NCBI GenBank assembly: GCA_038078555.1
Contig: JBBTYQ010000003.1
Location: 397 to 64,396, forward strand
Source: Patescibacteria group bacterium
GTDB lineage: Bacteria; Patescibacteriota; Minisyncoccia; UBA6257; UBA9933
Length of the DNA stretch: 64,000 nucleotides
Direction: 5' to 3'
The translations under genes were made by a program, and so were the position numbers. The first letter of the stretch is position 1. Each line of letters starts with the position of its first letter. A model generated the notes under the pieces. That model was not told where the DNA came from, ran no database searches, and was given only the letters and a program-made list of their open reading frames with translations. Below, piece by piece: positions 5,273 to 44,303 of this stretch.

Positions 5273-5779
5273 CTATTTACTAACTTTTACCCTCGCAGGT
5301 TTAATTAATTTACCATTTAGAAAATATCCCTTTTCAATTTCTTCAATAATAGTGCCGTGCGGCTTATCCGAATCAATTGACACAATTGCTTCATGATACT
5401 TAGGATTGAAAATTTCGCCAATTATAACATTCACTTTTTCCAATCCGTTTTGTTTCATTACGTCGTTTAACTGACTTAAAATTAAATAAATGCCTTTGTC
5501 AACATTGCCGTTCTTTTCTAAGGAACTCAAAGCCAAGTCAAAACTGTCTAAAACCAAAAGCAATTCTCTGATCAAGGATTCATTGGAAAATTTTGCAATC
5601 GTTTCAAAGCGCTTGGCTTCATCTTTTTTATAATTTATCAGTTCGGCTTTTGCCCTTTTCCAGCCATTAAGATATTCTTCGCGTTCTTTCTGACACCTCA
5701 AAAACTCATTTTCTTCTAAAGCTTCAACCGAAGTATCATTTTTCGCTTCTTCCTTGTCTTCATTTTTAACTTCGTCCAT
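5273..5779 (-). CDS. grpE: Nucleotide exchange factor GrpE
   Basis: 168 aa. It has an acidic N-terminus, a coiled-coil and a GrpE-like C-terminal beta domain (GTIIEEIEKGYFLNGKLIKPARVKVS). It lies directly upstream of dnaK. Confidence 0.9.
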   Translation of the reverse strand: MDEVKNEDKEEAKNDTSVEALEENEFLRCQKEREEYLNGWKRAKAELINYKKDEAKRFETIAKFSNESLIRELLLVLDSFDLALSSLEKNGNVDKGIYLILSQLNDVMKQNGLEKVNVIIGEIFNPKYHEAIVSIDSDKPHGTIIEEIEKGYFLNGKLIKPARVKVSK

Positions 5780-5906: not shown

Positions 5907-6356
5907 ATGTGCAAAATAGTCAAAATCAAATCTTCTTTAGCGGTCGTTTTTTATGGAGAACTTGGCAATGAGAACAGATTGCTTGAAAAAAATTATAAAA
6001 CGCAAGCAACGATAGAACCTCAAGAAATATATCTTATAAACAGCGATAGAATGACCGATGTGGGAGTTTTTAACGGCAAAACATGTATTTTCCAATCATT
6101 TCACCTTAATTGCTGTTCTTGCCAAAGCTATTGCTCAGGAAAAAAGAACAAGGTCAAGGGCCATATAACAAAAAATAACAAATGGACTCTTTTTAACGTG
6201 CCTATTGTCGGACACAATACAAAGGCAAATTGTTACGCTTTTTTAGAATATCGCTTTATTGAAAAAAACGGACAGCGCGCCAATCACCATTACGGCCTTC
6301 CAATATTTTTCCATTCCTCCAAGCCCCCTCTTAGCTGGCCTCCAACAAATATTTAA
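5907..6356 (+). CDS. Hypothetical Cys-rich protein
   Basis: 149 aa containing CCSCQSYC. A strong SD (GGGAGGG) lies 4 nt upstream, and a hairpin with a T-run follows at about 6396-6432. I recognise no family. Confidence 0.55.
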   Translation: MCKIVKIKSSLAVVFYGELGNENRLLEKNYKTQATIEPQEIYLINSDRMTDVGVFNGKTCIFQSFHLNCCSCQSYCSGKKNKVKGHITKNNKWTLFNVPIVGHNTKANCYAFLEYRFIEKNGQRANHHYGLPIFFHSSKPPLSWPPTNI

Positions 6357-7888: not shown

Positions 7889-9220
7889 ATGAACATTAAA
7901 CTTCCGCCCCAAGATTTAGAAGCAGAGCGCGCCGTATTAGGAGCGCTGATGATTGATAAAAGCGCCATTATTAAAGTGGCGGATTTAATTACGGCTGATG
8001 ATTTTTATCAGCCCGCTCATTCAAAAATCTATGACTGCGTGGTCGAGCTTTTTGAAAAAAACGAACCGATTGATATTTTAAGCATCACTAACCGGCTTAG
8101 ACACAAAAAACGGCTTGAAGAAGTCGGCGGTTCAAGTTATTTAACGGAACTTGTTAATTCAACAACCACCTCGGCCCATATTACTCATTTTTCCAAAATA
8201 ATCCGCAGCAAAAAAGTTTTGCGCGACCTGGTTGCCGCGTCATCAGACATCACTGACAAAGTTTTTGAAAATCCCGAAGATTCGGAATACTTACTTGATG
8301 AAATTGAACAAAAAATTTTATCTATCGCCCAAAAATCGAAACCTCAAAATGTTGTATTGATAAAAGACGAACTAAAAAGCGCTTATGAAAGAATTGAAAA
8401 GCTCCATCAAGGAGAGAAAAGACTAAGAGGCGTAACAAGCGGCTTTGAAGAGATCGACCACTATCTTTCCGGTTTTCAAAATTCTGACTTGGTGATTATA
8501 GGCGCCCGGCCATCGCTTGGAAAAACGACTTTTGCTTTGGACATTGCCAGAAATGCCGCAGAACACGGAAACGGAGTGGCTATATTTTCTTTAGAAATGT
8601 CACGCGAGCAAATCGTTGACCGCTTAATAGCAGCCGAAGCCCAAGTGCCTTTGTGGCAACTTAGAACCGGCCGATTAACCGATGAAATAGAATTTGAAAT
8701 GATTCAACAGGCGCTAGACCGATTGTCCCGATTGTCGATTTTAATCGATGATTCTCCTTCGCCGACAATTCTCCAGATTCGGGCAACAGCCAGAAGGCTT
8801 CAAGCGGAACATAAAAATTTAGGCCTTGTAATAGTTGATTATGTCCAATTAGTCATGCCAAGAACAAATTCAGAAAACACGGTTCAGCAATTTACCGAAG
8901 TAAGCCATGGCTTAAAATCTTTAGCCAGAGAGCTTAATTTGCCGGTAATTGCGGTATCCCAATTATCGCGGGCGGTTGACCAAAGAGAAGTTAAAATTCC
9001 CCGGCTTGCCGATTTAAGAGAAACCGGCGCGCTCGAACAAGATGCAGACGTAGTGATGTTTATTTACCGAAAAGACCGCGATAAACTAAACCCATCCTTG
9101 GAAGAAGAAAATACCGCTGAAATAATTATTGCCAAGCATAGAAACGGCCCCTTAGGAACCGTAACACTTAAATTCGACCCGGAAAAAGTAAGTTTTAAAT
9201 CAATCGACAAGGTTCATTAA
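7889..9220 (+). CDS. dnaB: Replicative DNA helicase DnaB
   Basis: 443 aa with the N-terminal PPQDLEAERAVLGALM, Walker A GARPSLGKT, and a RecA-like C-terminal domain. Confidence 0.96.
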   Translation: MNIKLPPQDLEAERAVLGALMIDKSAIIKVADLITADDFYQPAHSKIYDCVVELFEKNEPIDILSITNRLRHKKRLEEVGGSSYLTELVNSTTTSAHITHFSKIIRSKKVLRDLVAASSDITDKVFENPEDSEYLLDEIEQKILSIAQKSKPQNVVLIKDELKSAYERIEKLHQGEKRLRGVTSGFEEIDHYLSGFQNSDLVIIGARPSLGKTTFALDIARNAAEHGNGVAIFSLEMSREQIVDRLIAAEAQVPLWQLRTGRLTDEIEFEMIQQALDRLSRLSILIDDSPSPTILQIRATARRLQAEHKNLGLVIVDYVQLVMPRTNSENTVQQFTEVSHGLKSLARELNLPVIAVSQLSRAVDQREVKIPRLADLRETGALEQDADVVMFIYRKDRDKLNPSLEEENTAEIIIAKHRNGPLGTVTLKFDPEKVSFKSIDKVH

Positions 9221-10001: not shown

Positions 10002-10617
10002 AATCCGCTTTTTTAAAATACTTAAAATGCTTATACATCAGCCAAACGCCAACTGATAAAATGGCTATTACAATCAAATAATCAAATTGCCGGAAATAAA
10101 TATGAAGCGCTTCCCAGTTTTTTCCGAAAATTAAGCCCAAATAAGTCAGAAACAATGACCATAAAAAACTGCCGGAAAATGTCAAAATTGAAAAACGCCA
10201 AATTGATTTAAATCTTAAAATACCCAAAGGAAAAGAAATAAAAGTTCGCGCCACCGGCAAAATACGGGAAATAAATACAGCGTAATCTCCAAAACGGTCA
10301 ATCCAAGTTCTCGCCCGTTCCACTTCAGCGGAAATTTTGTGATTATTCCATTTCAAAATGCCATTTCTCACCAAACTTCCCAGCCAATAGGAAAAAAGAG
10401 AGCCAAATAAATTTCCAAAAGCGCCTACAAAAACCACCAGCCAAAAACTGAAAACGCCCGATGAAACCAAAAATCCCGAAAAAGGCATAATTACCTCCGA
10501 AGGAATCGGTAAATTAGCGGATTCCAGAAACATCAAAAAAAATACCCCCCAATAACCAGTATTGCTTATCAAAAGCAAAGCATAACCAGAAATAATGCTT
10601 AAAATTGAAAATGTCAT
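10000..10617 (-). CDS. DedA family membrane protein
   Basis: 205 aa with the DedA-type pattern FLESANLPIPSEVIMPFSGFLV and multiple TM helices. Confidence 0.85.
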   Translation of the reverse strand: MTFSILSIISGYALLLISNTGYWGVFFLMFLESANLPIPSEVIMPFSGFLVSSGVFSFWLVVFVGAFGNLFGSLFSYWLGSLVRNGILKWNNHKISAEVERARTWIDRFGDYAVFISRILPVARTFISFPLGILRFKSIWRFSILTFSGSFLWSLFLTYLGLIFGKNWEALHIYFRQFDYLIVIAILSVGVWLMYKHFKYFKKAD

Positions 10618-16611: not shown

Positions 16612-16643
16612 CAAAAAGCCCCGATGGTATCCACCATCGGGGC
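16612..16643 (-). terminator. Rho-independent terminator of the 16667-17161 gene
   Basis: An 11-bp perfect stem (GCCCCGATGGT / ACCATCGGGGC) with loop ATCC is followed by a T-run on the minus strand. Confidence 0.75.
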
Positions 16644-17161: not shown

Positions 17162-17283
17162 CCCAATCGCCTCCTTCTATATTTTTTAGTTATGTAAATT
17201 TTCTTCCCTTATGATAACATAATAAAATTAATATGTCAATAATACGATAACATACAAAAAGTTTTTAAAGTTTAGCTATCACT

Positions 17284-17399
17284 GGCGCTCCCGCAAGGAA
17301 TCGAATCCGTCAGTAGGCGGAGTGAGCCTATCAACTGCTTAAAAAATTTTATCCGCCCACTGGCGGACCGGCTGGCGGATTTGCCATTAAGCTATGGGC
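17284..17399 (-). pseudogene. Degenerate tRNA-Lys-derived unit with two GC-rich insertions (chimeric 3' end ...GCGGGAGCGCCA)
   Basis: The minus strand keeps the blocks CCCATAGCTTAATGGCAAAT, TTTTAAGCAGTTGAT and TTCGATTCCTTG, which are shared with the adjacent tRNA-Lys. The acceptor strands do not pair, and the anticodon and T stems are broken. Confidence 0.55.
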
Positions 17400-17421
17400 T
17401 ATGGGTTGAAAAGATTTACTG

Positions 17422-17492
17422 TGCCCCCACAAGGAATCGAACCTTGATCAGCTGCTTAAAAGGCAGCTGCTTTGCCACTAAGCTATGGGGGC
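17422..17492 (-). tRNA. tRNA-Lys(UUU)
   Basis: A 71-nt cloverleaf: GCCCCCA/TGGGGGC acceptor, anticodon arm GCTGC-CTTTTAA-GCAGC, T arm CAAGG-TTCGATT-CCTTG. No CCA is encoded. Confidence 0.92.
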
Positions 17493-17511
17493 ACAGTAAA
17501 TCTTTTCAGAT

Positions 17512-17769
17512 TTATTTATTTGTTAATTTTCTAATAAATTCTCTTCCTTTAAAACTCTTTAACTCTTTTTCCCTAATCATCGCTTCTTTTCTAGTATCAA
17601 AACTTTCTTTATAAATCAATCTCCAAAAACCACTATTCTTACTTGTAAACGATTTTGCTTTATTTTTCAATAATCCGTTGTGCCTTTTTAGTCTTTCTTC
17701 CAAATTTGATGTATGACCGATATAGATTTTATCTCTTTCCTTGTTGTAAATGGCATAAATAAAAAACAT
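17512..17769 (-). CDS. GIY-YIG nuclease family protein (small, URI-domain only)
   Basis: MFFIYAIYNKERDKIYIGHTSNLEERLKRHN... is a GIY-YIG core. The ORF track extends it to 17829, but that extension (MANPPAGGLLSR...) is a read-through of a tRNA fragment. Confidence 0.85.
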   Translation of the reverse strand: MFFIYAIYNKERDKIYIGHTSNLEERLKRHNGLLKNKAKSFTSKNSGFWRLIYKESFDTRKEAMIREKELKSFKGREFIRKLTNK

Positions 17770-17794
17770 TCTTTTAATTTCTTTTCTGCTTATT

Positions 17795-17843
17795 CTGCTT
17801 AAAAGTCCGCCGGCCGGCGGATTTGCCACTAAGCTATGGGGGC
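17795..17843 (-). pseudogene. 5' fragment of tRNA-Lys with a palindromic GC insertion
   Basis: The first 22 nt and the block CTTTTAAGCAG are identical to tRNA-Lys. The anticodon-stem 5' strand is replaced by the palindrome CCGCCGGCCGGCGG, and there is no 3' half. Confidence 0.7.
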
Positions 17844-17852
17844 AAATTAACT

Positions 17853-18101
17853 CTATGTGTTTTCTAATAATTTTTTAATTTTAACGCCTCCTTTCTGTTT
17901 TTTTAACCATCTTTCAAACTCTAATGCAAATTTTTTACTTTCAAACTCGCGCCAATATATTAATTTAAAAGGTCTTCTACTTTTCGTTGATTTACTCTTG
18001 CCTTCGTTATGCCATTTTAACCTTTTTTCGATATTATAAGTTGAGCCAATATAATTTTTATTATCTTTTTCGCTTTTTATAATATACACAAAATGCTTCA
18101 T
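17853..18101 (-). CDS. GIY-YIG nuclease family protein
   Basis: 82 aa with MKHFVYIIKSEKDNKNYIGSTYNIEKRLKWHN, a GIY-YIG core. Confidence 0.85.
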   Translation of the reverse strand: MKHFVYIIKSEKDNKNYIGSTYNIEKRLKWHNEGKSKSTKSRRPFKLIYWREFESKKFALEFERWLKKQKGGVKIKKLLENT

Positions 18102-23756: not shown

Positions 23757-24010
23757 ACCCCGCCCTCTATGCATTAATTCTTTTTTTGAGCGCTCGCCAA
23801 GCGCTACCATAATATTTAAGTTTTTTCTCTCTGCTTCTCGCATCTTGTTCGTATAAATAAGCTTCATAATAAATATATTTATCTTCTGGGAAATTTAGTT
23901 TATGTTCTTTTATCCGCCTTTCTAAATCATTTGTATAGCCAATATATAATTCGTCATTCTTTCGATTTTTGATTACGTAAACAAAATACATAACGCTTAG
24001 AGGGCGGGGT
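23757..24010. repeat. 13-bp perfect inverted repeat bracketing the GIY-YIG ORF
   Basis: ACCCCGCCCTCTA at 23757-23769 overlaps the stop codon. Its reverse complement TAGAGGGCGGGGT is at 23998-24010, 6 nt upstream of the start codon. Confidence 0.85.
23767..23991 (-). CDS. GIY-YIG nuclease family protein
   Basis: 74 aa with MYFVYVIKNRKNDELYIGYTNDLERRIKEH. Confidence 0.85.
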   Translation of the reverse strand: MYFVYVIKNRKNDELYIGYTNDLERRIKEHKLNFPEDKYIYYEAYLYEQDARSREKKLKYYGSAWRALKKRINA

Positions 24011-35705: not shown

Positions 35706-35928
35706 ATTTCAGCAATTAATTTTCGTTGTTAGCGATTACTTTAAATAAAAATGCGCCTATTTGCAGACGCACTTAAGAGAAACTAAATTTACCAGTTCCT
35801 CAACAGGATTTATCTCCGCTTTGCGGAGCACCTGTCTCCCGACGTTACGTCGGGAGATCCCTCGACGTAACGTCGGGAGATGGTCTGCGGAATTTTTATA
35901 ATATTATCAGACTGATTTAAAAAGTCAA
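35706..35928 (-). promoter_or_regulatory. Structured rplJ leader: promoter, twin GC hairpins, terminator-like hairpin
   Basis: TTGACT is at 35928-35923. Two near-identical hairpins lie at 35880-35858 and 35857-35835. A 7-bp stem plus T-run lies at 35771-35743. The 5' segment CCGCAGAC (35890-35883) can pair with the terminator strand GTCTGC. Confidence 0.5.
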
Positions 35929-42220: not shown

Positions 42221-42286
42221 TTTATTTTATTTTAAACATTAATATTAAAAAAACAATAGCTGATAATTAAATATAACTACATTTTG

Positions 42287-42358
42287 AGCCGATGGGGAGA
42301 ATCGAACTCCCGACCTCTTTCTTACCATGAAAGCGTTCTGCCACTGAACTACATCGGC
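42287..42358 (-). tRNA. tRNA-Thr(GGU)
   Basis: 72 nt with acceptor GCCGATG/CATCGGC, anticodon arm CTTTC-ATGGTAA-GAAAG, and T arm GGGAG-TTCGATT-CTCCC. Confidence 0.92.
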
Positions 42359-42363
42359 ATAAA

Positions 42364-42394
42364 TGGTGGCGTTCTGCCACTAAACTACTCTGGC
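42364..42394 (-). pseudogene. tRNA-Thr(GGU)-like 5' fragment ending in CCACCA
   Basis: GCCAGAGTAGTTTAGTGGCAGAACGCCACCA contains an acceptor 5' strand and a D arm that closely match tRNA-Thr(GGU). It then jumps directly to a CCA-like end. Confidence 0.55.
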
Positions 42395-42405
42395 ATCTAA
42401 CCGGG

Positions 42406-42586
42406 AGCCGGAGAGAGGAGTCGAACCTCCAACCGAAGTTTACCCCGTTAGATATGCCGATAAGCCGGCGGAGGGATTCGAACCCACGACCTACGGTTTA
42501 CAAAACCGTTGCTCTGCCCCTGAGCTACGCCGGCATATCTAACGGGGCTTCGCAAAAGCATTGCTCTACCATTGAGCTACCCCGGC
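42406..42586 (-). other. Interrupted tRNA-like gene (anticodon-loop UGC) whose halves flank tRNA-Thr(UGU)
   Basis: The 5' part (42586-42548) and the T arm plus acceptor 3' strand (42430-42406) have acceptor strands that pair 7/7. They are separated by 117 nt containing a 13-bp inverted repeat and a complete tRNA. Confidence 0.55.
42463..42534 (-). tRNA. tRNA-Thr(UGU)
   Basis: 72 nt with acceptor GCCGGCG/CGCCGGC and anticodon arm ACGGT-TTTGTAA-ACCGT. The T arm GTGGG-TTCGAAT-CCCTC has one U-U mismatch. Confidence 0.88.
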
Positions 42587-42599
42587 AACGCAAACAATC

Positions 42600-43715
42600 T
42601 TAACTTTTTTTTATTAATTCTTCAAGCTCTTCCAGCATTATTTTAGGTTCGCCTTTGCTAAAATATTCTCTGGCAGGATTTAATAATTCAATCAAATATT
42701 CGGCTACAAATTTTTTAAGGTCTTCTGGATGAAGTCCGCCACTTTTAAAAATTTTTTCCAATTCTTCAATCGAAAAAATTTCAAGATTTCCGCCGTGCTC
42801 CGCCTTCCGAGAAATTGTGATTTTATTTTCCCGGCTGAAAATTAAATATCTCGCCCAATCAATAATAGGATTAAATTCAATATCTTTCTCCGGACAATAA
42901 GCTTTTTTAATTTTTCTCAAAATATCTTCTTCGCTATCGTGAATAAAAATCGCGCTGTCCGGCTTAGATTTAGACATTTTCATCGATGTTTGCAAATCTT
43001 CGCCTGAAGCGCCGTTATTCGGCTTATTTAGCCCCAAGAGCAGATGATGATGCACTGCCACCGGTTTTATAATCTTATCGCCGATTTTAAGCGGAGAAAA
43101 TTTCAATTGGTTTGCGACATCGCGTGCTATAACGTTGGCTTTTCGCTGGTCAAGACCGGCATGAGAAAAATTAAAGCCGCCGGCAAAAATATCTGCCACC
43201 TGCATTGCCGGATAAAGAAGTTTGGCAAAATCAACTTCTATCCCCTCGCGCCTGCCCATAATCGTTATGCTTCTTTGCATTCTTGCCAAACTCGTATTTT
43301 TGCTGACATCAATCAAGGTTTGCCAGTATAAATCGTTATTATGATAAAAATCCGAAGCTAAAATGAAATTTAAATCATTAGGATTGCCGCCTAAACATTT
43401 ATAAGAAATTTTTAAGCCTTCTTCAAAATAACCAACCGCTGTTTTTTTTATCGCGTCGAGATTGCCGCCCAGCTTATCATTTATCCAGGTATGATAATCT
43501 GCCAAAAAAATATGCGTTTTAACTCCGGCATCGAAAAAATCTTTAACTTTTTGCATGCAAATCAATCCGGTGCCTAAATGAATTTTTCCGGAAATCTCTA
43601 AGCCGATATAATGCTTTAAAGGAGTATTTTGAGAAAACAAAAACTCCAGCTCATCGCTTTCAATAACCTCCTCGGTTAAACGGGATATTAAATTGATTTT
43701 TTCTTTTATATCCAT
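42600..43715 (-). CDS. tyrS: Tyrosyl-tRNA synthetase, archaeal/eukaryal type (no S4-like C-terminal domain)
   Basis: 371 aa. It has YIGLEISGKIHLGT (HIGH region), KMSKS, YPAMQVADI, KIKKAYCPEKDIEFNPI and GGLHPEDLKKFVAEYLIELLNP. These blocks closely parallel the Methanocaldococcus jannaschii TyrRS sequence as I remember it. Confidence 0.85.
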   Translation of the reverse strand: MDIKEKINLISRLTEEVIESDELEFLFSQNTPLKHYIGLEISGKIHLGTGLICMQKVKDFFDAGVKTHIFLADYHTWINDKLGGNLDAIKKTAVGYFEEGLKISYKCLGGNPNDLNFILASDFYHNNDLYWQTLIDVSKNTSLARMQRSITIMGRREGIEVDFAKLLYPAMQVADIFAGGFNFSHAGLDQRKANVIARDVANQLKFSPLKIGDKIIKPVAVHHHLLLGLNKPNNGASGEDLQTSMKMSKSKPDSAIFIHDSEEDILRKIKKAYCPEKDIEFNPIIDWARYLIFSRENKITISRKAEHGGNLEIFSIEELEKIFKSGGLHPEDLKKFVAEYLIELLNPAREYFSKGEPKIMLEELEELIKKS

Positions 43716-43931: not shown

Positions 43932-44303
43932 TTATATTAAATATTTTTGATATTTTTCATCTTCTAATGATATTACATTCCTTGCGCTTATTTCTTGCCA
44001 TTTTATTAAATAACAACGATTATCAGCGGTATAAATAAATAAATAATCAAAATCGTCATCTCTATATTTTTTAGCATAATTAAAACTTTGATTACCTCCA
44101 GTAATTCTAAGATTGGCGCAATGTGCTCCTCGACTACTTTTACCTGCAAATTTTATTTGTACTTTATTTAATTTTTTACCATCATCAAATACTAAATCAT
44201 ATCGCTTTCTATCTCCTAAGGGAAGTAAAACTTCATAGCCAAACGCTGTTAATTTAGCAATACATTGAGAAACGGCTAATGATCCTTTGTCTTTACTATT
44301 CAT
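43932..44303 (-). CDS. PD-(D/E)XK endonuclease-like protein (intron-associated-type small nuclease family)
   Basis: 123 aa. It has KGSLAVSQCIAKLTAFGYEVLLPLGDRKRYDLVFDDGKKLNKVQIK, the GD...D-x-V...Q-x-K pattern of this family. Confidence 0.7.
   Translation of the reverse strand: MNSKDKGSLAVSQCIAKLTAFGYEVLLPLGDRKRYDLVFDDGKKLNKVQIKFAGKSSRGAHCANLRITGGNQSFNYAKKYRDDDFDYLFIYTADNRCYLIKWQEISARNVISLEDEKYQKYLI

Follow-up and report, generated by a model that had tools for sequence, protein, structure and literature searches.

A tRNA-Thr gene nested within a broken tRNA-Thr gene in a groundwater member of the Patescibacteria

The DNA examined is a stretch of 64,000 nucleotides of contig JBBTYQ010000003.1 (called the window here); its source is Hainich groundwater and a Wolfebacteria-like lineage of the Patescibacteria. 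On its minus strand a complete tRNA-Thr(UGU) gene lies between the two parts of another tRNA-Thr(UGU) gene and is enclosed by a perfect 13-bp inverted repeat. With a probability of about 0.75, in our estimate, a hairpin-armed cassette has broken the essential tRNA-Thr(UGU) gene of this lineage while supplying its replacement. We found the nested layout again in relatives' genomes and in metagenome stretches (the compared loci carry L-numbers, L001 etc.), making it a recurrent architecture that is apparently undescribed, and the literature searched held no description of tRNA genes nested in tRNA genes or of tRNA-bearing hairpin cassettes.

Identity and state of the outer gene

Read on the minus strand, to which all positions of this locus refer, the order is the stop codon of the tyrosyl-tRNA synthetase (TyrRS), 13 nt, the 5' part of the outer gene, the insert, the 3' part of the outer gene, the leader CCCGGTTAGAT, a 31-nt tRNA fragment, TTTAT and tRNA-Thr(GGU). 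The cluster of tRNA-Tyr, TyrRS, tRNA-Thr(UGU), tRNA-Thr(GGU), L33 and tRNA-Trp is conserved in relatives, and the TyrRS gene directly upstream (42600–43715, Pfam PF00579) served as the synteny anchor for finding the locus there. Four relatives (L003, L009, L010 and L056) possess an uninterrupted tRNA-Thr(UGU) at the same locus between TyrRS and tRNA-Thr(GGU), with the sequence GCCGGAGTAGCTCAATGGCAGAGCAGTGCTTTTGTAAAGCAAAGGTTGGGGGTTCGACTCCTCTCTCCGGCT or a close variant of it, which we call A-type. Without its insert the outer gene of the window is identical at 63–65 of 72 positions to the A-type genes of L003, L009 and L010 and also to an intact gene at another locus in L076, compared to only 57 of 73 positions for its own inner tRNA. 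Because it is closer to the A-type than to the inner tRNA, sequence comparison identifies the outer gene as the original resident tRNA-Thr(UGU) of the lineage, cut between G35 and U36 of the anticodon loop (TTTG / insert / TAA), and outer and inner gene are the same isoacceptor.

The outer 5' part (42553–42586, GCCGGGG-TA-GCTC-AATGGTA-GAGC-A-ATGCT-TTTG) contains the acceptor 5' strand, the D arm, the 5' strand of the anticodon stem and loop nucleotides 32–35 (ATGCT TTTG), and 31–32 of its 34 positions are identical to the intact A-type in L003, L009, L010 and L076. The outer 3' part (42406–42442, TAA-ACTTC-GGTT-GGAGG-TTCGACT-CCTCT-CTCCGGC-T) reaches 31–33 of 38 positions and is composed of loop nucleotides 36–38 (TAA), a degenerate 3' strand of the anticodon stem (ACTTC), the variable loop, the T arm and acceptor 3' strand (42430–42406) and the discriminator. 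The insert, sitting exactly between nucleotides 35 and 36 without target duplication, has a size of 136 nt, 72 of them tRNA, and reads CGAAG-CCCCGTTAGATAT-tRNA-Thr(UGU)-TATCGGC-ATATCTAACGGGG. Its first five nucleotides, CGAAG (42548–42552), pair with CTTCG (42434–42438) across a TAAA bulge. They are followed by the 5' arm CCCCGTTAGATAT (42535–42547), which abuts G1 of the inner tRNA and is the perfect 13-bp complement of the 3' arm ATATCTAACGGGG (42443–42455). The inner tRNA-Thr(UGU) itself (42463–42534) was detected by ARAGORN and, at full length with 70.3 bits, by the Rfam tRNA model, and the 7-nt spacer TATCGGC behind it (42456–42462) recurs as YATCGGY in L002, L014 and L072. A related cassette in L069 starts with CGAGCAGGGCGAAGCCCCGT.

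An earlier note, made from the letters of this DNA alone, had given its elements with exact coordinates and had drawn the outer 5' part as far as 42548, and its seven of seven outer acceptor pairs with one G-U (GCCGGGG/CTCCGGC), its complete inner tRNA and its 13-bp repeat with the CGAAG/CTTCG extension were found as described, the extension running across the 4-nt bulge. The first of its two proposals, a tRNA gene disrupted by a tRNA-bearing cassette, is supported by the uninterrupted gene of the four relatives and by the insert at 35/36. In contrast, the UGC anticodon assigned there to the outer gene is an artefact of reading TTTG on into CGA, as the insert begins after G35 and the real identity is Thr(UGU). 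We accordingly rejected tRNA-Ala(UGC), whose 'UGC' straddles the insertion boundary; the identity pair of tRNA-Ala is G3-U70, in place of which the outer gene has C3-G70. A tRNA-Gly(UCC), which the classical gene order thrU-tyrU-glyT-thrT would place here, was rejected as well, as the relatives have no Gly gene at this position.

Features of a canonical tRNA are still present in the outer gene, namely the acceptor stem, the D arm GCTC-AATGGTA-GAGC with G18 and G19, and the T arm GGAGG-TTCGACT-CCTCT with its TTCGA. After removal of the insert in silico its anticodon stem (ATGCT/ACTTC) forms two of five pairs, compared to four of five in intact relatives, and ARAGORN reports it as tRNA-??? with no anticodon assigned. 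With the insert in place it was called neither by Rfam, at the gathering threshold and at E <= 10, nor by ARAGORN with and without -i, and only the inner tRNA was found there. Rfam matches to MtlS (28.6 bits, gathering score 80) and YrlA (24.3 bits, gathering score 69) over the nest were rejected, as they arise from the helix and the tRNA-like modules. Because its anticodon stem pairs at only two of five positions, we regard the outer gene of the window as a dead, decaying shell and the inner tRNA as the functional gene. For each interrupted tRNA seen, an intact tRNA of the same anticodon is present too.

The other proposal of the earlier note, two halves joined via the helix into a split tRNA, is not supported, in view of this stem, the same-anticodon tRNA that is always at hand and the relatives in which the anticodon arm, the D arm or the whole 5' half is gone. 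The archaeal bulge-helix-bulge motif has two 3-nt bulges with a 4-bp helix between them at the exon–intron junctions; by inspection this motif is absent from the nest, in which a single bulge of 4 nt (TAAA), confined to the 3' strand, separates the 5-bp from the 13-bp helix. Group I introns possess a conserved core P3-P9 and usually at least 200 nt, with U before the 5' splice site and G as last intron base. No Intron_gpI match was obtained in 42250–42650 at E <= 10, and the upstream base at 35/36 is G; a shift to 34/35 gives U / G...G / G, which agrees with the base rule only via the boundary ambiguity. Among the ten open reading frames (ORFs) around the locus scanned against Pfam there was neither EndA nor an RtcB ligase. 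ARAGORN in intron mode called no shell over all loci. Its one match was the tRNA-Thr(GGU) of L078 (7385–7649, minus strand). This gene is interrupted immediately 3' of the anticodon (ARAGORN offset 37) by 189 nt that probably represent a group I intron like those described from Patescibacteria.

Recurrence of the nested layout and pairing of its arms

The locus sample, unbiased with respect to nesting, consisted of species representatives found through TyrRS and five further lookups. Besides the window, nests are present in L001, L002 and L014, L099 resembles L001, and L012 is probably a nest too; four or five lineages of the sample carry nests. Five lineages have an intact A-type gene and about ten a single Thr(UGU) of another sequence type without shell or arms. 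The latter genes form one clade on the TyrRS tree, a single-gene neighbour-joining tree without support values, and on the same tree cassettes of one arm family are found in non-sister lineages. Scanning metagenomes for an inner anticodon loop followed 67–97 nt later by an A-type 3' end yielded 26 stretches, about 20 of them nests, two chance matches and one tandem relic, with a bias to well-preserved shells since the pattern demanded an intact outer 3' end. The nest pattern had no match in viral contigs, and a phage origin was rejected on this basis.

The commonest junction is TTTTG / insert / TAAAG, corresponding to 35/36 without duplication, and was seen in the window, L064, L066, L069, L081, L084 and L085; further insertion sites are 25/26 in L079 and 23/24 in the middle layer of L074. 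This last locus (10030–10330) is a triple nest: the A-type Thr(UGU) within its outermost Thr shell (GCTAGCG.../...CGCTGGC) is complete apart from an insert in the D stem, and a third, intact Thr(UGU) lies in that insert. L081 has one extra layer. In L084 an empty hairpin, CCTGCCCGCC-GGCAGGCGGG, is located in the outer D stem and the same arms recur on the tRNA-loaded hairpin in the anticodon loop.

The same or a related design was found for three other tRNAs. L001 contains a nested tRNA-Pro(UGG) (8230–8470, minus strand) with perfect shell stems and a second hairpin ending GGGGCAGG at 38/39, and in addition a tRNA-Trp (5926–6075) with 11-bp arms, the 5' half of an outer Trp gene upstream and a GIY-YIG ORF at 5408–5674. 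The window itself has a tRNA-Lys(UUU) locus of related architecture (17280–18101, minus strand). It begins with a GIY-YIG ORF of 82 aa (17853–18101) and a Lys 5' fragment with a TCCGCC...GGCGGA hairpin (about 17842–17790). A second GIY-YIG ORF of 85 aa (17512–17769) lies between this relic fragment and the new gene, an intact tRNA-Lys (17421–17492) whose perfect 14-bp arms add to the acceptor stem to give a single perfect helix of 23 bp. Next comes a Lys relic of full length that carries three hairpin inserts (about 17399–17280).

The shells are preserved to very different degrees. In silico removal of the insert restores a valid, ARAGORN-accepted tRNA with four to five of five anticodon-stem pairs for the tRNA-Thr of L064, L084, the middle layer of L074, L079 and L080, and likewise for the tRNA-Pro of L001. 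The anticodon stem is broken in the window, L085 and L081, and the anticodon arm is missing in L002, L014, L072 and L073. L082 has lost the D arm of the shell, L001/L099 the T arm and L063 the complete 5' half along with the 5' arm of the cassette. Many shells carry small GC-rich hairpins in the D loop, for which L064, L069 and L085 have the site AATGGCA / CCCC...GGGGCAGG / GAGC in common with differing interiors, and in L014 hairpins are found in the T loop also. Several loci have an identical 3' exon TAAAGCGAAGG and a 5' anticodon strand that does not match it, and L066 and L081 have the same 5' strand in outer and inner gene; these two patterns suggest one-sided conversion and recombination between layers. 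Double D-loop hairpins in tRNA relics of L004 and L014 are resembled by two tandem GC-rich hairpins (TCCCGACGTTACGTCGAGGGA and TCTCCCGACGTAACGTCGGGAGA) at 35835–35880 of the window, in the leader upstream of the L10/L12 genes, where a weak L10_leader match was obtained.

Perfect inverted 13-mers within 150 nt arise at a rate of 0.85 per dinucleotide shuffle of the window, and the 13-bp helix is therefore not a chance match; the genome overall has 42 such 13-mer windows, and other real hairpins exist. For the region RNAfold predicted a structure of -85.4 kcal/mol (z = -4.4) that contains the long helix as well as the outer acceptor stem. The duplex energy of the flanks is -20 to -40 kcal/mol for nested Thr(UGU) genes, compared to a median of -7.8 kcal/mol for 100-odd other tRNAs of the same loci. 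Between subfamilies the arms are unalignable (CCCCGT..., TCCCGC..., CCTGCC..., CCCCGCCC..., CCAGAACC...), and almost always they start with YCC and end with GGR. A first alignment of the arms by MAFFT had shifted rows and was replaced by an anchored alignment of the basal 10 bp of 14 loci, which we compared to 500 shuffles. In these arms, which were selected for pairing, 95% of the cells are paired as against 58.6% in the shuffles, and 10 of 10 pairs are changed on both sides, a covariation that was reached by 0 of 500 shuffles. G-U exceeds A-C by 21 to 8, with symmetric scoring for both, and in 17 of 19 loci the arm duplex is more stable on the sense than on the antisense strand, which points to a constraint acting on a single strand, be it the RNA or single-stranded DNA with the same sense.

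The arms are thus constrained to pair and not to keep a given sequence. According to the earlier note a merely dead gene would decay freely and without covariation in the helix. The outer gene does decay but the helix covaries strongly, and it is therefore a constrained feature of the cassette and not junk. Spacer and arm on the 3' side are an inverted copy of 'leader + GCCGAT' in four loci (the window, L002, L014 and L072) and therefore also pair with the first bases of the inner tRNA. A target-site duplication, as expected for insertion sequences and miniature inverted-repeat transposable elements, was not present at any junction seen, and the arms keep complementarity instead of sequence. 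An IS200/IS605-style mode was rejected too, as the junctions showed neither target duplication nor a common target tetranucleotide.

Hairpin elements, nuclease genes and neighbouring relics

Armed hairpins are also found around a protein gene. Upstream of mraZ, the window carries a GIY-YIG ORF of 74 aa (23767–23991) inside the inverted repeat ACCCCGCCCTCTA/TAGAGGGCGGGGT (region 23757–24010). Its homologues in L087, L089 and L090 show 77–85% identity and have the same repeat but different neighbours, which are peptidase A24 and an unknown gene, DNA polymerase III delta' and RRF, and a CARDB protein and NusA, respectively. Because the repeat accompanies these homologues into other genomic surroundings, the region 23757–24010 looks like a small mobile hairpin element. 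L087 has a copy lacking the ORF beside its GIY-YIG element, and in L091 complete hairpins are present on each side. The tRNA cassettes of L073 and L082 share CCCCGCCCT of their arms with the GIY-YIG repeat, and GIY-YIG genes adjoin nests in L072, L001, L012 and L078, the ORF of the last directly touching the 5' end of the shell. The GIY-YIG ORFs (74, 85 and 82 aa) are single-domain, with PF01541 recorded on homologues and only weak NCBIfam matches to GIY-YIG families. Long-range duplexfold analysis around these genes was too permissive to be informative, and GC-rich hairpins at 16619, 18165, 46701 and 56676 were dismissed from the element family as ordinary terminators, as T runs follow them.

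A nuclease gene of a different family is located near the nest. Between EF-Ts and tRNA-Tyr there is a free-standing PD-(D/E)XK ORF (43932–44303, minus strand) with a Pfam match to PF11645, a family that includes tRNA-intron homing endonucleases (PMC13011429), and L005 has a homologue at the same place. In L004 (3362–4200) and L100 (2734–3516) an ORF of 260 aa lies between Thr(UGU) and the relics of Thr(GGU); it has a PD-(D/E)XK-like motif (YTPDF...WIEIK) and no Pfam match on record, and may be another nuclease lodged in the tRNA cluster.

Downstream of the nest, the leader CCCGGTTAGAT and the 31-nt fragment (42364–42405 together, the fragment at 42394–42364) represent a relic 5' half of a Thr tRNA with acceptor strand and D arm, followed by the intact tRNA-Thr(GGU) (42287–42358, ARAGORN and Rfam) as next gene of the conserved cluster. 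The earlier note had taken the fragment for a copy of the Thr(GGU) 5' end that ends in CCACCA. The likeness to Thr(GGU) stands, with 21 of 25 positions identical, but the CCACCA is not a CCA end and the leader matches the 5' arm of the cassette at 10 of 11 positions. Leader and fragment are, to judge from these matches, what an earlier replacement or duplication left behind at Thr(GGU). Such 5' fragments ahead of Thr(GGU) also occur in L002, L003, L005, L006, L008, L009, L057 and L105. One to three copies of the first ~23 nt of Thr(GGU), comprising acceptor strand and D arm, were found upstream of this gene in L002 (5300–5620), L006 (5600–5770), L008 (5210–5385), L003, L005, L057 and L105. Each copy is followed by a conserved GGGCGAAGCCC hairpin and GATGCTT, forming tandem units of ~80 nt in L002, L006 and L008, and the copies may be relics of earlier replacements or of break-induced amplification.

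As seen from the window gene and loci L015–L058, the TyrRS upstream of the nest is of archaeal type, with 50–64% identity to proteins of DPANN archaea (Woesearchaeota and Pacearchaeota). This likeness suggests gene transfer between these episymbiont groups.

Explanations and known systems

In the explanation we favour, a 136-nt cassette would have entered the original tRNA-Thr(UGU) gene between nucleotides 35 and 36 without target duplication. The broken gene was probably single-copy and essential, and the insertion would have been survivable as the cassette brought a replacement. The inner tRNA would then take over, the cassette could no longer be lost and the outer gene would decay as a shell. 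We propose that the cassette is a non-autonomous member of a Patescibacteria family of hairpin-armed elements whose loop can be empty or can hold a tRNA or a small GIY-YIG gene, and that the GIY-YIG nucleases may move the cassettes or make the breaks that let them spread. The arms likely serve as a single-stranded DNA hairpin recognised by the mobility or nuclease machinery, or as a stem in the RNA that keeps the inner pre-tRNA apart from outer halves nearly identical to it and provides a site for processing, and it could also be possible that they have both functions. Finally, recombination between the direct repeats of outer and inner halves together with small deletions might strip off shell and arms and leave a single tRNA of the new type, as in the lineages with one Thr(UGU) of another sequence type.

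Several observations weigh against this explanation. The Thr nest of the window contains no nuclease gene, the nearest being the PF11645 ORF ~1.4 kb upstream, with GIY-YIG genes elsewhere in the window. The published SRM consensus of the Ssn hairpin system (HGTCWY N0-2 YYVSBRH N0-5 WNVSBRG N0-2 RNCYNB) had 0 matches on both strands of the window, compared to 0.03 in shuffles. How a tRNA gene enters a hairpin loop is left unexplained by the cassette model, and it is the distribution of the tRNA cassettes that suggests their mobility. Shells with two or three hairpin inserts keep perfect stems (L084, L064 and the tRNA-Pro of L001), which is easier to understand if the exons are still selected, or if insertion is much faster than point mutation. 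A pair of near-identical genomes with and without the insert was not found in the sample, the closest relative having 82% TyrRS identity. The selection of arms for pairing, the demand for an intact outer 3' end in the metagenome scan and the single-gene tree have to be kept in mind as well.

Going further, one could tentatively envisage a class of selfish elements, so far undescribed, in which small GIY-YIG nucleases act on DNA hairpins and thereby move hairpin-armed cassettes into the loops of essential tRNA genes. The full replacement tRNA in the hairpin loop, and not splicing, would keep these cassettes harmless. The host would afterwards depend on the invader, and repeated invasion would lead to Russian-doll tRNA genes. 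Bolder still, the inserts of the best-preserved shells might be excised from the RNA, which would make the inner tRNA an intron-encoded one.

A variant of the favoured explanation is classical homing, in which a free-standing endonuclease, either GIY-YIG or the product of the PF11645 gene beside tRNA-Tyr, cuts the uninterrupted tRNA-Thr and repair copies the cassette in, with the arms being only an RNA processing or insulating stem. We consider this possible but rather doubtful. Insertion is precise, without duplication and with one preferred site, and the gene is intact in L003, L009, L010, L056 and L076 as opposed to interrupted at the identical TTTTG / TAAA site elsewhere. The common 3' exon TAAAGCGAAGG next to mismatched 5' anticodon strands is what one-sided co-conversion would give, and nuclease genes adjoin nests. 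There are also precedents, as the GIY-YIG enzyme SegB of T4/T6 cuts in tRNA genes and rearranges clusters (PMC13096335) and PF11645 is a known family of tRNA-intron homing endonucleases (PMC13011429). However, arms of this kind are also found around a GIY-YIG ORF and without any cargo, which ties them to the element and not to tRNA processing, the GIY-YIG nucleases with their 74–85 aa have no DNA-binding domain, unlike known homing enzymes, and cleavage by them is a prediction.

It is unlikely, in our view, that one ancient insertion or rearrangement followed by vertical descent, without any mobile cassette, explains the data. The arms would then be kept by gene conversion between inverted repeats or by chance, the decay rates of the shells would differ and the intact lineages would have lost the insert precisely. 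The related appearance of the arms of L001, L002, L014 and L072 (TCCCnCA.../...TGnGGGA) and of the YATCGGY spacers would fit, as would the missing near-identical genome pair. But the insert positions differ (35/36, 25/26 and 23/24), up to three layers need repeated events (L074, L081), the same design is found for Pro, Trp and Lys, and arm families that cannot be aligned are nevertheless always paired. Moreover, intact lineages are interspersed with nested ones on the TyrRS tree and would require many exact excisions.

Even less probable is an outer gene that still works. Here the hairpin insert, together with the small D- and T-loop hairpins of the relatives, would be a new bacterial tRNA intervening sequence, from which RNase P and RNase Z release the inner tRNA while the arms hold the halves for trimming and ligation or for use in two pieces, and the locus would yield two tRNA-Thr(UGU). 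The valid tRNAs restored by insert removal in the well-preserved shells argue for it, as do an outer acceptor strand and D arm that are almost invariant across ~15 loci and not demanded by the search pattern, and the covariation of the arms with G-U favoured over A-C. Also, introns of Patescibacteria tRNAs for which self-splicing is proven sit at 35/36 (PMC13011429). Against it stand the poor anticodon stem of the window, for which ARAGORN finds no anticodon, the shells without anticodon arm, D arm or 5' half, the lack of both a bulge-helix-bulge and a group I core (42250–42650, E <= 10), the failure of ARAGORN intron mode to call any shell and the intact tRNA of the same anticodon that always accompanies them. 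Furthermore, we know of no bacterial pathway that removes such inserts and religates the halves. Finally, an assembly or binning chimera of two tRNA-Thr genes deserves practically no credence, even if assemblers can be misled by repeats of tRNA sequence and the L060 contig breaks off within the nest. From the outer 5' half through the arm into the inner tRNA, an ENA assembly (L059) and the independent Logan assembly (L060) have the same junction, which is therefore no assembly artefact, and the same architecture occurs in more than 20 unrelated assemblies.

If the cassette explanation is true, it would account for the turnover of tRNA genes and their movement between lineages in the highly reduced genomes of Patescibacteria, and also for tRNA fragments and hairpin-riddled relics that annotation tools miss or miscall. 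As tRNA counts are used to score genome completeness, nested relics can distort such scores. Small GIY-YIG proteins, distinct from or distantly related to the Ssn family, might thereby have a role in tRNA gene dynamics.

The nearest described system is that of the Ssn nucleases, small GIY-YIG enzymes specific for single-stranded DNA that occur with the hairpin repeats NTS/SRM, the hairpin loop being replaceable in vitro (Chenal et al. 2025, PMC11893778). Common to both are single-domain GIY-YIG proteins (74–85 aa here), genes bracketed by GC-rich, hairpin-forming inverted repeats, and related hairpins scattered in the genome. In contrast to Ssn, the SRM consensus is not matched in the window, one hairpin encloses the cargo instead of a full hairpin standing on each side, the cargo can be a tRNA and the sites are tRNA genes. 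REP/REPIN elements with their RAYT transposases are grouped here with the Ssn hairpin repeats. Group I introns have been described at 35/36 in the anticodon loops of Patescibacteria tRNAs (Nakagawa et al. 2026, PMC13011429), and they share with the cassette a precise insertion into the anticodon loop without duplication, presence or absence among relatives and nuclease genes nearby. The cassette differs by having no ribozyme core and no Rfam intron match and is apparently not spliced, so that the host gene is replaced by the inner copy and then decays. SegB is the free-standing GIY-YIG homing endonuclease of the T4/T6 tRNA cluster, and its breaks lead to duplications and segment replacement (PMC13096335). 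A GIY-YIG gene among tRNA genes is found here as well, and the tandem Thr(GGU) 5' fragments and the tRNA-Lys locus can be compared to its products; SegB, however, is a phage enzyme with a DNA-binding domain and gives tandem repeats, not nested genes with paired arms.

Archaea have split and intron-containing tRNAs, such as the tRNA halves of Nanoarchaeum, bulge-helix-bulge introns at non-canonical sites and the multi-intron tRNAs of Thermoproteales. Shared features are interruptions of the anticodon loop, the D arm or the T loop, of which one gene may have several, and a complementary helix joining the halves. In our bacterium, however, there is no bulge-helix-bulge, both halves lie in order on a single transcript, the shells are decaying and a full copy of the same tRNA lies inside. 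Integrative elements that target tRNA genes carry a copy of the 3' part of the tRNA and restore the target by recombination in the identical segment. As in our case, insertion occurs into a tRNA gene and the supplied sequence keeps tRNA function; they leave, however, one intact gene and a partial 3' duplicate, whereas here a whole new gene lies within the old halves and no integrase is present. In 'fractured genes' (Dassa et al. 2009, PMC2677866) a split intein divides the gene, and a free-standing endonuclease gene lies between its two halves; here too an essential gene is broken by a selfish insertion and the host is kept viable. These are protein genes rescued by trans-splicing, in contrast to an RNA gene rescued by a replacement copy. 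Thus, while introns splice themselves out and integrative elements rebuild their target, the insert described here appears to bring a spare copy of the gene it breaks, which would be a third way to tolerate an insertion.

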